Assembly: GCF_044324875.1 (NCBI RefSeq) | Contig: NZ_CP172185.1 | Length of the DNA: 64,000 nucleotides | Strand: one strand, 5' to 3' | DNA from: Escherichia coli | Lineage (GTDB): Bacteria; Pseudomonadota; Gammaproteobacteria; Enterobacterales; Enterobacteriaceae | Shown here: piece after piece, positions 35,155-42,213 of the stretch | How positions within the stretch are numbered: position 1 is the first letter of the stretch | How the letters are laid out: every line of letters starts with the position of its first letter | Program-made: the position numbers and the translations under genes | The notes under the pieces: model-generated | Database searches by the model: none | What the model was told of the DNA's origin: nothing | The model's input: only the letters and a program-made list of their open reading frames with translations

Positions 35155-35886
35155 TCAGGCTGTTACCAAAGAAGTTGCAACCTGGCGCTCATCAGAAATA
35201 ATGTGCGTTACCTCATCCAGATGCCCGATGCGGGCTTCCCCTGAACGATTAAATTTACTTTTATCAATCAATAACAACGATTGCGCGGCGCGTTTTAATA
35301 GCATTGATTTGTAATCAGCGTTGATGGCATTGGAGTCCCACAGTGCGCCGCTGCTATCGATCCCTTCACAAGAAAAAATAAACAGATCGATTTCCAGCGA
35401 TTTAAGTTGAGAAATCAGCGAGGGATTGACGTAACAGCCATATTTGCGCTCAAGTGTGCCGCCGGAACTGATCAGTTGAATGCGTTCGCGTTTACCGAGT
35501 TCATGGCAAATCGGATGGCTATTGGTGAAGACCTGGATGTTGATGTCAGGCAACTGGCGTGCCAGATACCAGCAGGTTGAACTTGCGTCTAAGGCTATTA
35601 CCATCCCTTCTTCAATCCACGCGAGCGCCTCGCGCGCGATATCTGCTTTATGCGCATAATGGCTTTTCAGCCGGATGTGAAAGGGATCGCCACTGTCTTG
35701 ATTTTGACGGTGGATATATTTAGCGCGCCCATGATTGCGCAGAATTTTACCCTGCGTCTGTAATTCATTGAGATCGCGACGAATGGTTTCTTTACTGACC
35801 TTTAGCTGTTCAGAGAGAGCTTCCGTGGTCAGGCTGGTATGGTTCAGCAGCAGGTCGACTATCGCTTGCTGGCGTGCCGCTTTCAT
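35155..35886 (-). CDS. fucR: DeoR-family transcriptional activator of the fucose regulon
   Basis: ORF track 35155..35895; start placed at ATG 35886 (MKAARQQAIVDLL..), 243 aa. Confidence 0.9.
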   Translation of the reverse strand: MKAARQQAIVDLLLNHTSLTTEALSEQLKVSKETIRRDLNELQTQGKILRNHGRAKYIHRQNQDSGDPFHIRLKSHYAHKADIAREALAWIEEGMVIALDASSTCWYLARQLPDINIQVFTNSHPICHELGKRERIQLISSGGTLERKYGCYVNPSLISQLKSLEIDLFIFSCEGIDSSGALWDSNAINADYKSMLLKRAAQSLLLIDKSKFNRSGEARIGHLDEVTHIISDERQVATSLVTA

Positions 35887-35943
35887 ATTTTTCACCCCAT
35901 CATTCGATAACCGCCCGCGTCATGCGGGCGTACCGGTATGAGA

Positions 35944-36367: not shown

Positions 36368-37786
36368 TCACACTTCCTCTATAAATTCAGGTTCAGTTTG
36401 CGGGTAGAAATAACGGTACTGATAATGAATCTGCGCGCGGGCTTCTTCCGGGCTGTTAAATTCCCCTACGCCATACCAACCGAACAGCGCAGCTCCTGCG
36501 ACGGTCGTTTCTGCGTCGTCGAGAACTTTTACCGGAATATCAAGCATATTGGCTTTAATCTGATTCCACAAAGTGTTGCGACTTCCTCCGCCGACTAACA
36601 ATAATTCAGAGGCTTTAAAGTGCCCGATTTTTTCCAGCATCTGTAGATTGCGCTGTAATTGCTCAGTTAACCCTTCCAGCGCCGCGCGATAGAAATGCCC
36701 CCGCGTGGTATTAAGCGTCACTCCTTGCCAGCCAGCGTTCTGACACGACAATAAATCACACTGCATTTTCACACCATCCGCGCCAGGTGCGATCAGACGA
36801 GCCTCTTCAATCAACATTTGCCAGGGAGTTTCAGCCGTCCAGAACAGTTTTCTCACCCATTCCAGCACGCCGGATGCCAGCCATTGCATACCTGGGTTAT
36901 ACAACCCTGCCTGACTATCCAGTTCGCAGGTGGAACCGGCATACTGACTTAACAGCGAAGTATCAACCTGGGCGCTACGGACCATTAAAATTTCCCATGT
37001 ACCGGAAGAGAGCACGGGTTCATTTTGTTCAGCACCAGCGCCAAAAAGGGCGAACTGGGTATCGTGACCTGCGGAAATCACCGGTATGCCAACGGGTAAG
37101 CCGAGCATTGCTGCGGCGCTGTTCTGTAACGTACCAATCTGTTCACCCGCTTCCACCAGACGAGGGAAGAGGCGGCGTGGAATACCGGTGGCGTGTAAAA
37201 TTTGCGGACTGAAATCGCGTTGCTGGATATCCAGCATCTGGCTGGTTCCGGCCATCGTGATATCAGTAGTGAATTCGCCGGTTAAACGGTGGTTAATCAG
37301 CGACGAAATAAAGAGCCAGGCGTGCGCGCGTTCCAGCAGTTGTGGATGATTTTCTTTCAACCACACCAACTTATATAACGTATTGAAACTAAAGGCTCCG
37401 ACGCCAGAAATAGCCTGCAACTGCTGTGCGGAGATCAACCGTTCAATATTGTCCATTACCGCTGCTGTTCGCGGACATTTCCAGCTAATGATCGGATAGA
37501 GCAGATTGCCTTGCTTATCTACCAGAGCGCCATCCACACCAAAGGTGGTGACGGCGATACCGCGGATGTGGCATTCAGTCAGTTCACTATTGATTTGCCG
37601 ACAGCAATCAGCAAAGCGTTGCAAAATGGCGTCTAAAGACCACTGGTGCCAGGTGGTGTTTTCCATCGCGATATCGCTGGCATTAGGCGTTGAGGCGCGG
37701 GCAACAATTTTTCCCTGCCGATTAACCGCGATGGCCCTGACATTGGTCGCGCCACAGTCGAGTACCAGGATAACTTCTTGTTTCAT
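36368..37786 (-). CDS. fucK: L-fuculokinase
   Basis: FGGY-kinase ORF; start placed at ATG 37786 ([17 protein letters not shown]..) because of AGGAG SD 7 nt upstream; ORF track extends to 37816. Confidence 0.9.
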
Positions 37787-39702: not shown

Positions 39703-41019
39703 TCAGTTAGTTGCCGTTTGAGAACGGAAACGGGCAAAGATAAAGATGACCGCGAAGCAGAGTGCGGGGATCAGTTCAGCAGTGGGGATGTTGCCCGCCG
39801 CGTCACTGACAAAACCCATGACCGGAGTGACAATACCGCCGCCAATAATGGTCATAACGATGAAGGACGAACCGTATTTGGTGTCCTGGCCGAGATTCTT
39901 AATGCCCAGCGAGAAGATTGTTGGGTACTGAATCGACATAAAGGCACTGCATAATGTCAGGGCTATTAAGCCCACATGACCGCCAGCGAAGGCTGAGATC
40001 AGGCACAGTGCCATAGCGATTAATGCGTAGGCTGCCAGGACTTTGTGTGGTGCGAAGCGACTGATGAGCCAGGTACCGGTGAAACGACCAATAAAGAAGC
40101 ACACCATGGTTCCGGTTAAATAGTTAGCGGCAAAGCCTGCGGTCATACCTGGAATTTCTTCTACAGCGTAGCGAATCAAATAGCTCCAGCAGGCCGTTTG
40201 CGCGCCGACATAGCAGAATTGCGCTAATACCGCCCAGCGCCAGTGACGAATACGCGCCAGACGAGAAAGCGATGCGGAGAACGATCCTTGTTTGGCGTCA
40301 CTGTGATTATCACTCTGCAATGCCGGGAATTTCGTCAGCATGATCAGCAGGGCGACCAGTAACACGATAGCCACGATGATCATATAAGGTGTCTGTACCG
40401 ATAATACCAGGCTGTGTTTATACGCACTCAATTGCTCTGGAGACATTTTATCGAGAACGTCTTGCGATTGATGTGGCACGTTAGACAAAATAAGACTTTG
40501 CCCAAAGACAACCGCGATAATTGCGCCAAACGAGTTAAATGTTTGCGCAAGATTTAAGCGGAAGTGACCACTGCTTTCCGGCCCTAATACCGTAACAAAA
40601 GGGTTTGCGGCAGTTTCCAGACAACCTAATCCGGCTGCAATAATAAATAGGCCAACTAAAAATAAGGTGTAGTTCATTATTTCTGCAGCGGGCCAGAATA
40701 ATGCAGCGCCCAAGGCATATAAAAATAATCCGGTAATAATCCCTGCTTTATAACTGAGTTTTTTCATCAATATCCCAGCAGGGATTGGGATAATGAAATA
40801 ACCAAAGTAAAAGGCCGATTGGATCAGGCCAGCCTGGAAATTTGTCAGCGTAAAAGCCTGCTGGAATTGAGGTAATAAAATGTCGTTAAGGTTATTGGCT
40901 ACCGCCCAAAGAAAAAACAGTGAGCACAGCAGCGCGAATGGAATAATGTAACTTCTGCTTTGCCCTGCATCTTTATCTACCGCACGGTAACTCTGCGTTT
41001 GTATTGATGTGTTTCCCAT
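39703..41019 (-). CDS. fucP: L-fucose:H+ symporter (MFS)
   Basis: 438-aa multi-TM ORF. Confidence 0.95.
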   Translation of the reverse strand: MGNTSIQTQSYRAVDKDAGQSRSYIIPFALLCSLFFLWAVANNLNDILLPQFQQAFTLTNFQAGLIQSAFYFGYFIIPIPAGILMKKLSYKAGIITGLFLYALGAALFWPAAEIMNYTLFLVGLFIIAAGLGCLETAANPFVTVLGPESSGHFRLNLAQTFNSFGAIIAVVFGQSLILSNVPHQSQDVLDKMSPEQLSAYKHSLVLSVQTPYMIIVAIVLLVALLIMLTKFPALQSDNHSDAKQGSFSASLSRLARIRHWRWAVLAQFCYVGAQTACWSYLIRYAVEEIPGMTAGFAANYLTGTMVCFFIGRFTGTWLISRFAPHKVLAAYALIAMALCLISAFAGGHVGLIALTLCSAFMSIQYPTIFSLGIKNLGQDTKYGSSFIVMTIIGGGIVTPVMGFVSDAAGNIPTAELIPALCFAVIFIFARFRSQTATN

Positions 41020-41565
41020 AGCATCCTCTTAGGTTCAGAAGCTTAAGCACGTAATCGGTTATGTTTTCAAAAGTGCAAAACCAGCGAGTTCGGGCTTCAT
41101 ATCAGTGAATATTTGCCTGTCAGAAATGAACTCATGGATTCATTTTCAAATAAAAAACGCTCTGTAATATGACGGCGGTCACACTTATTAGCTGGGAGGT
41201 GACTTTATGTGACTACCATCACTTTAATAATCGAAATTTCATGCCCGTTTCAGAAAATAAATCATAAAAAACACAAACCCGATGACCGTATTAATTGTTT
41301 GTGCCGAAAACGGGCATTTCTGGCGAGGGGGAATGGAAAAATGACCGTTTTGATAAATATTTTTAAGAGCGGTCATTTTTAATAGGGTTATAAAAAGAGA
41401 ACTTGCAGTTATTTACTGTGATTAGTTGAACCAGGTCACAAAATATAAGCTTGTGAATTTCTTTCTGGTTAATCAGGAAGAAGATGGTGGGTAATTAAAC
41501 GGCTAATTCAATAGTGTGAAAGGAACAACATTATTGCCCTGTTTTGAATCAGAGAGAGGTAGCTA
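41020..41565. promoter_or_regulatory. divergent fucPIKUR / fucAO control region with candidate CRP site and repeated ATGACCG/CGGTCAT motifs
   Basis: 546-bp AT-rich intergenic region between divergent fucP and fucA; TGTGActaccaTCACT at 41208..41223. Confidence 0.6.
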
Positions 41566-42213
41566 ATGGAACGAAATAAACTTGCTCGTCAGATTATTGA
41601 CACTTGCCTGGAAATGACCCGCCTGGGACTGAACCAGGGGACAGCGGGTAACGTCAGTGTACGTTATCAGGATGGGATGCTGATTACGCCTACAGGTATT
41701 CCATATGAAAAACTGACGGAGTCGCATATTGTCTTTATTGATGGCAACGGTAAACATGAGGAAGGAAAACTCCCCTCAAGCGAATGGCGTTTCCATATGG
41801 CGGCCTATCAAAGCAGACCGGATGCCAACGCGGTTGTTCACAATCATGCCGTTCATTGCACAGCAGTTTCCATTCTTAACCGACCGATCCCCGCTATTCA
41901 CTACATGATTGCGGCGGCTGGCGGTAATTCTATTCCTTGCGCGCGTTATGCGACCTTTGGAACACGCGAACTTTCTGAACATGTTGCGCTGGCTCTCAAA
42001 AATCGTAAGGCAACTTTGTTACAACATCATGGGCTTATCGCTTGTGAGGTGAATCTGGAAAAAGCGTTATGGCTGGCGCATGAAGTTGAAGTGCTGGCGC
42101 AACTTTACCTGACGACCCTGGCGATTACGGACCCGGTGCCAGTGCTGAGCGATGAAGAGATTGCCGTAGTGCTGGAGAAATTCAAAACCTACGGGTTACG
42201 GATTGAAGAGTAA
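41566..42213 (+). CDS. fucA: L-fuculose-phosphate aldolase (class II)
   Basis: 215-aa ORF. Confidence 0.95.
   Translation: MERNKLARQIIDTCLEMTRLGLNQGTAGNVSVRYQDGMLITPTGIPYEKLTESHIVFIDGNGKHEEGKLPSSEWRFHMAAYQSRPDANAVVHNHAVHCTAVSILNRPIPAIHYMIAAAGGNSIPCARYATFGTRELSEHVALALKNRKATLLQHHGLIACEVNLEKALWLAHEVEVLAQLYLTTLAITDPVPVLSDEEIAVVLEKFKTYGLRIEE

Follow-up and report, generated by a model that had tools for sequence, protein, structure and literature searches.

Four CRP sites and five conserved FucR boxes in the divergent fucPIKUR/fucAO control region of Escherichia coli

Which regulatory signals are present in the 546 bp that separate fucP from fucA in E. coli, and do the short motifs repeated there belong to one type of site or to several? 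This fucP/fucA intergenic region occupies positions 41020-41565 of the window, i.e. the whole 64,000-nucleotide stretch of E. coli DNA that was analysed. The genes that delimit and regulate it are the following:

35155-35895, minus strand: fucR, regulator gene of the DeoR family (Pfam HTH_DeoR 6.8e-23, DeoRC 1.7e-45), downstream of fucPIKU
39703-41019, minus strand: fucP, first gene of the fucPIKUR operon (NCBIfam L-fucose:H+ symporter, 977 bits)
41566-42213, plus strand: fucA, first gene of the fucAO operon (NCBIfam L-fuculose-phosphate aldolase, 452 bits)

Among the ORFs of the window, fucP is followed by fucI, fucK and fucU, and fucA by fucO; fucP, fucI, fucK, fucU, fucA and fucO all give NCBIfam equivalog matches far over the cut-off. 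The cognate regulator gene fucR is present in cis, at the end of the fucPIKUR operon, and a PDB search returned no solved relative of FucR at E <= 1e-5. Many E. coli genomes contain the 546-bp interval in 100% identical form, and it was found in 5024 of 5426 complete genomes. Compared with K-12 MG1655 it has the same length and aligns without gaps, 532 of the 546 bases being identical (97%, 14 substitutions). Gene order and the K-12 alignment together identify the interval as the fucPIKUR/fucAO divergent control region of E. coli; the sequence-only reading had named it the divergent fuc control region, and this is borne out by the identities of the flanking genes and by orthology to the 546-bp region of K-12. 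Our main reading, to which we give a probability of about 93%, is that the interval is this known control region and contains two weak activator-dependent promoters, four CRP sites and five FucR boxes.

Conservation was analyzed on fucA loci taken from one genome per species (80 loci, 44 of which have the divergent fucP-fucA arrangement). The alignment used for conservation values contains 27 species, and its background identity is 0.48. In many Citrobacter, Atlantibacter, Buttiauxella and other genomes there is also a FucA homologue, 81-88% identical, whose upstream neighbourhood lacks fucP; these homologues represent a second aldolase locus, set in another context. The CRP sites, and the position of the K-12 IS5 target that lies between two of them, are distributed as follows:

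41166-41187, unstranded: OCrp0, taaTaTGAcggcggTCACActt; core 41168-41183, one mismatch to TGTGA-N6-TCACA; conservation 0.84
41192-41195, unstranded: position of the K-12 IS5 insertion target CTAG, from the MG1655 alignment (-374..-371 from the fucA ATG)
41205-41226, unstranded: OCrp1, core TGTGActaccaTCACT at 41208-41223; one mismatch (9/10 match to TGTGA-N6-TCACA); conservation 0.83
41422-41443, unstranded: OCrp2, ttagtTGAaccaggTCACAaaa; core 41425-41440, two mismatches; conservation 0.69
41512-41533, unstranded: OCrp3, tagTGTGAaaggaacaACAtta; core 41515-41530, two mismatches; accessory site in the fucA 5'UTR

Four of the 26 matches to the CRP pattern found in the window with at most two mismatches fall in this region, where 0.22 are expected (Poisson P ~1e-4; this and the other Poisson P values and expectations per 546 bp are our own arithmetic on match counts in the window). 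The sequence-only reading had noticed a single near-consensus CRP site. It is real, lies exactly at 41208-41223 and corresponds to OCrp1, an assignment made by elimination, since no other CRP-type match lies between the IS5 target and OCrp2; OCrp2 (41422-41443) and OCrp3 (41512-41533) had been overlooked. In K-12 the OCrp0 sequence has been published and mutated, and the mutation abolishes CRP-dependent activity (Zhang et al. 2025, PMC11894529). OCrp2 and OCrp3 have been mutated as well; OCrp2 is reported to be essential for PfucAO, and OCrp3, in the 5'UTR, to have an effect of about 30% on this promoter (Zhang et al. 2024, PMC11011485). OCrp0, OCrp1 and OCrp2 are conserved across species, and OCrp3 is not conserved outside Escherichia: its identity is 0.31 against a background of 0.48, and most other genera have no CRP-type match at this position, which fits a weak accessory effect.

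IS5 is described as inserting at CTAG, between OCrp0 and OCrp1, and as silencing fucPIK by displacing OCrp1 (PMC11894529). In propanediol-positive mutants of K-12, IS5 is always found at CTAG. In this strain positions 41192-41195 read CTGG, not CTAG, position 41196 is changed too, and a TTAG of the YTAR type remains at 41188-41191. The exact 60-mer of the window at 41166-41225 is common to only 404 of 5014 E. coli genomes. The replacement of CTAG by CTGG might alter the IS5 route to fucAO activation.

For the two promoters, the published fucAO elements were converted to window coordinates and the fucPIK side was read from conservation:

41127-41157, minus strand: conserved block, putative fucPIK core promoter (0.88 identity, 25 species), with a -10-like GAAAAT at 41142-41147
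41493-41503, plus strand: PfucAO -10 element aattaa (41493-41498) and 5'RACE start C (41503), published as -73..-68 and -63 from the fucA ATG (PMC11011485)

The block at 41127-41157 is the most conserved stretch of the intergenic region (0.88 versus a background of 0.48). It contains an imperfect palindrome, TGAACTCATGGATTCA, beside TTTTCAAATAAAAAA. Presumably it holds the core promoter and the start region of fucPIK, and it may be more than that. We infer a fucP start site near 41135, because OCrp0 would then be centred at -41.5 and because this position lies inside the segment 'Up1', which is said to hold the fucP start; the start has been placed within 100 bp upstream of the IS5 site (PMC11894529). 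Relative to the putative fucP start, OCrp0 is at -41.5, OCrp1 at -80.5 and box A, described below, at -109. Relative to the fucA start, our own arithmetic puts the centre of OCrp2 at -70.5, box E at -130 and box C at -189. Searches of the region gave no terminator and no consensus sigma-70 promoter, the latter as expected for activator-dependent promoters. The published PfucAO assignment looks internally inconsistent: the -35 element 'TTGtgA' is placed at -96..-91 from the fucA ATG (PMC11011485), where the bases (41470-41475) read TAATCA, and TTGTGA is actually found at -115..-110 (41451-41456), 36 bp from the stated -10.

The remaining motifs had been sorted in the sequence-only reading into two classes, ATGACCG or its complement CGGTCAT at four places, and a separate inverted repeat formed by atgcccgttt and aaacgggcat. 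Both classes are a single motif, AAACGG(T/G)CAT, which is present in five copies, A to E. The T/G position, taken as the centre, is at 41244 (A, minus), 41285 (B, minus), 41314 (C, plus), 41344 (D, minus) and 41373 (E, plus). Scores in the following list are those of a position weight matrix (PWM) described below, and 'unnamed' refers to the available portions of the publications:

41237-41257, minus strand: FucR box A; core CGGGCAT at 41241-41247, PWM 14.2; left arm of the second inverted repeat; unnamed
41278-41298, minus strand: FucR box B; core CGGTCAT at 41282-41288, PWM 13.4; unnamed
41304-41318, plus strand: FucR box C, the published OFucR2, CCGAAAACGGGCATT; core 41311-41317, PWM 19.1 (PMC11011485)
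41337-41357, minus strand: FucR box D, minus-strand 15-mer ATCAAAACGGTCATT at 41340-41354; core 41341-41347, PWM 27.4
41363-41377, plus strand: FucR box E, the published OFucR3, TTAAGAGCGGTCATT; core 41370-41376, PWM 22.1 (PMC11011485)

Evidence for physical binding of FucR comes from DAP-seq by Baumgart 2021, as cited in Zhang et al. 2024 (PMC11011485). The consensus derived from it is quoted there as G(A)C(T)C(G)A(C)A(G)A(TC)A(T)CGGT(G)CAT(A)T(CG), i.e. RYSMRHW-CGG-K-CA-W-B. All five boxes match this consensus and have an intact CGG-K-CA-T core; by our own count the mismatches in the flank number zero for D, one each for B and C, and three each for A and E. Full-text literature searches returned neither a footprint nor an EMSA of E. 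coli FucR on fuc control DNA, and no further DAP-seq, ChIP-exo, SELEX or EMSA data on this protein, and a paper on a fucose biosensor is silent on FucR sites.

The claim of four heptamer copies holds for three exact ones, ATGACCG (plus strand) at 41282-41288 and 41341-41347 and CGGTCAT (plus strand) at 41370-41376, although the last had been placed a few bases off, at 41379. The fourth, at 41177, is inexact: it reads CGGTCAC (41176-41182) and lies within the CRP-type palindrome TATGAcggcggTCACA. We rejected it as a FucR box, as it is the right half of OCrp0, has no A-rich 5' flank and has a PWM score below 9. For ATGACCG, 8.15 matches are expected per 64 kb on both strands, or 0.07 per 546 bp, and three are observed in the region (P ~6e-5). 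With the longer ACGGKCAT, four of the eight matches of the window are concentrated at 41241-41348, against 0.04 expected for the region (P ~1e-7).

The inverted repeats that had been described are explained by these boxes. The aatgaccg/cggtcatt repeat exists as proposed: it has 22-nt arms at 41337-41358 and 41359-41380, with no gap between them and 82% complementarity, and boxes D and E together make a near-palindrome of 44 bp in E. coli. In the second repeat, atgcccgttt (41241-41250) and aaacgggcat (41308-41317) are indeed 100% complementary, but they do not form a separate element, since both arms are copies of the box with G as the degenerate base. One of these arms has T in K-12, and across species T and G alternate freely in each box, without covariation between partners; the perfect repeat is therefore a lineage accident.

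Conservation of the motifs in orthologous fuc regions had been proposed as a check along with the sequence-only reading, and its outcome is decisively positive: 25 other enterobacterial species keep all five boxes at the same positions and in the same orientation. The exact core CGGNCA is found among the 27 species in 25 cases for A, 26 for B (the other having one mismatch), 27 for C, 27 for D and 22 for E (plus three). Order, orientation and spacing of the boxes are kept in the 44 regions fetched. The five boxes form islands of conservation (0.75-0.90 versus a background of 0.48). Taken together, the conserved islands of the alignment coincide with these boxes, with the CRP sites OCrp0, OCrp1 and OCrp2, and with the block of the putative fucP core promoter.

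The PWM spans 21 nt; its training set consisted of 121 orthologous sites from the 25 species outside Escherichia (consensus tttwttAAAACGGKCATTTtt). Over 128 kb of scanned strand, D ranks first, E second, C third, A sixth and B eighth, the mean maximum score in shuffled sequence being 13.9; the training sites are orthologues of the tested sites, so that this ranking shows specificity and is not fully independent. Two observations concern matches outside the intergenic region. The fucP coding sequence contains four CGGTCAT/ATGACCG heptamers at 39752-40146, against 0.51 expected from synonymous-codon shuffles, none of which reaches four in 1000 trials; as candidate FucR boxes these copies were rejected, as they lack A/T flanks, score below 10 and are conserved in only 0-8 of 43 orthologues, and we treat them as chance in this lineage. 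Inside fucK, at 36616-36636 on the minus strand, a PWM match TGGAAAAAATCGGGCACTTTA reaches 14.8, a value comparable to that of box A and close to the maximum in shuffled sequence; fucU is about 250 bp and fucR about 720 bp downstream of it.

Published genetics in K-12 bears directly on some of the boxes. Mutation of OFucR3, our box E, lowers fucose induction of fucAO more than 50-fold, and mutation of OFucR2 (CCGAAAACGGTCATT), our box C, lowers it by about 30% (PMC11011485); the OFucR2 position, 41304-41318, reads ...CGGGCATT in this strain. According to the same paper, a -270..-1 fragment has full fucAO activity, and boxes A and B lie outside this fragment. Construct V6, in which E is kept and D deleted, retains about 70% of fucAO induction, and a -206 construct from which both C and D are removed loses only about 30% of it (PMC11011485); the removal of D in V6 adds little further loss, and box D is thus not needed for fucAO. 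D is at the same time the best of the boxes, with zero consensus mismatches and the top PWM match in the 64-kb window, and no name for it was found in the available parts of the published text on fuc FucR sites. The proposal that the motifs are FucR operator half-sites is correct in that CGGTCAT is the core of the FucR box. The half-site character itself is doubtful given the roughly 70% induction obtained with box E alone; 'half-site' may be the wrong word for these boxes, since a single one can work alone.

Box C differs between strains. Position 41314 is G here (CGGGCAT) and T in K-12 (CGGTCAT), and the consensus permits both. The exact 38-mer of the window around this box is found in 1806 genomes and a version with one mismatch in 1221, while about 2000 genomes with the region are not matched by this short query. 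The 1221 genomes probably carry the K-12 T allele, and both alleles are common in E. coli.

Two explanations of the repeats without FucR boxes were weighed against the main reading. Chance, or the AT-rich composition of intergenic DNA, could make such motifs recur, as short 7-mers do; fucP itself carries four copies that look non-functional. Yet the enrichments observed (P ~1e-4 to 1e-7), the retention of position and orientation in 25 other species at a background identity of only 0.48 and the published mutagenesis that backs two of the boxes are not what composition would produce, and the intragenic copies of fucP show by contrast what chance copies look like, with conservation in only 0-8 of 43 orthologues. 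Conservation and mutagenesis together refute chance recurrence, which we regard as close to impossible. It is hardly more probable that the inverted repeats act as secondary structure, either as a cruciform in AT-rich, easily melted DNA or as a hairpin in a leader RNA, and not as boxes for a protein. The 44-bp near-palindrome of D and E would suit such a structure, as would a report of the region as a zone of stress-induced duplex destabilisation (PMC5493358). In 73 pairs of adjacent boxes, however, dyad symmetry is confined to the 10-bp boxes (7.6 of 10 positions) and the inner spacer is at chance level (2.55 versus 2.35 of 8); partner boxes show no covariation at the T/G position, and no compensatory changes that keep the arms complementary were found across species. 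The boxes also lie between the divergent starts, that of fucP being putative, so that they are untranscribed from the known promoters, and no Rfam family matches at E <= 1 in 40800-41800. We rejected the cruciform or hairpin on the lack of symmetry beyond the boxes and of T/G covariation.

Spacing bears on how the boxes of the main reading may be grouped. Distances were measured across 45 regions in genera from Escherichia to Yersinia and Photorhabdus, which are related sequences and not independent samples. OCrp0 and OCrp1 are 39-40 bp apart in all 45 regions, the centre of OCrp1 is 28.5 bp from A in all genera where it was calculated, A is 41-42 bp from B, and E is 58.5-59.5 bp from the centre of OCrp2 across genera. 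Adjacent boxes in (-,+) orientation, i.e. B and C or D and E, are separated by 29 bp in 73 cases and by 30 bp in 10. The distance between C and D is the only variable one, with gaps of 11-65 bp between adjacent (+,-) boxes. The alignment reveals one further element:

41266-41277, plus strand: A', degenerate conserved element, AAAAAACACAAA here and AAAACCCACAG in most genera

A' lies 29-30 bp from box A, in a slot equivalent to that of C beside B or of E beside D. In four Photorhabdus species this slot holds a canonical box, and A' itself has a negative PWM score.

These distances suggest, as a refinement of the main reading and not as a replacement, that FucR might bind three dyads, A|A', B|C and D|E, each composed of divergent boxes 29 bp apart and bound by one oligomer. 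Under this tentative model, a rigid module on the fucP side (OCrp0-OCrp1-A|A'-B|C) and another on the fucA side (D|E-OCrp2) would be joined by a flexible linker. The narrow distribution of the (-,+) spacing (29 bp 73 times, 30 bp 10 times) against the wide C-D gap, the invariant distances from OCrp1 to A and from E to OCrp2, and the presence of a conserved element in the A+29 slot, replaced by a canonical box in the four Photorhabdus species, argue for it. The activity of construct V6, where E works without D and the dyad is thus dispensable for fucAO, the negative PWM score of A' and the non-independence of the related sequences speak against it. We are slightly more inclined to doubt than to accept that there are three 29-bp dyads in two CRP-anchored modules and that the orientation of a box decides the promoter it serves, plus for fucAO and minus for fucPIK. 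If it were true, it would give a concrete architecture for one DeoR-family activator driving two divergent CRP-dependent promoters. The five-box layout with its fixed spacings leads to testable predictions for the poorly characterised fucPIK side, which concern A, B, D and A'.

Returning to the main reading, a regulatory scheme can be proposed which rests on functional experiments made in K-12, whose control region has 14 substitutions relative to this one, one of them at the T/G position of box C. FucR with fuculose-1-phosphate and CRP-cAMP activate both operons in K-12; for fucAO, box E (OFucR3) and OCrp2 are described as essential and box C (OFucR2) and OCrp3 as accessory (PMC11011485). Metabolism of fucose would yield the fuculose-1-phosphate that activates FucR, and FucR on its boxes, together with adjacent bound CRP, would switch on both promoters. 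OCrp0 and OCrp1 would serve fucPIK, and OCrp2 and OCrp3 fucAO. FucR probably aids the binding or the function of CRP at OCrp2, since it is inactive without CRP. For fucPIK the same would be achieved, together with OCrp0 and OCrp1, by the boxes in minus orientation, A, B and D, which are the natural candidates for its activation.

The feature is thus already known, and its regulatory logic is published and partly validated. With the K-12 region (PMC11011485, PMC11894529) it shares the locus, the flanking genes, the four CRP operators, OFucR2 and OFucR3. It differs from K-12 by the G for T in box C, which makes a perfect 10-bp inverted repeat with box A, by CTGG instead of CTAG at the IS5 target, and by a variable patch at 41319-41335. 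In the available portions of the K-12 publications, four FucR sites are named ("four known" sites in PMC11894529) and two sequences are given; we count five conserved boxes and A'. What is added here is the deep conservation, the unification of two motif classes into one and the reassignment of the motif at 41177 to CRP; further increments are the unnamed, best-scoring box D, the A' element and the fixed 29-bp dyad spacing. Only the possible arrangement of FucR sites in three dyads is modestly new.

In wider terms, the fuc system can be set beside several others. Its control region in K-12 was reportedly the subject of work by Chen, Lu and Lin in 1989 and by Podolny and colleagues in 1999. The fuc regulon serves as a textbook example of experimental evolution, in which IS5 activates fucAO and allows growth on propanediol, and it is also a gut-colonisation trait. 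Its arrangement resembles malEp-malKp, where divergent activator-dependent promoters likewise carry asymmetric boxes in both orientations and interspersed CRP sites, and where CRP and the specific activator also act jointly. The two systems differ in that MalT is a STAND/LuxR-type protein, whereas FucR is of the DeoR family, and in that the box sequence and the inducer are not the same; for the box-repositioning mechanism of MalT we have no evidence of a counterpart at fuc. Closer by family are GlpR (glpTQ/glpACB), DeoR (deoCABD), AgaR and UlaR, which like FucR belong to the DeoR family and respond to sugar-phosphate effectors. DeoR-family arrays consist of multiple operators over one to two hundred bp, often with CRP co-regulation and divergent promoters. 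To our knowledge the FucR box has no sequence relationship to the palindromes of GlpR and DeoR. The other DeoR-family regulators are repressors released by their effector, whereas FucR is an activator that needs it.
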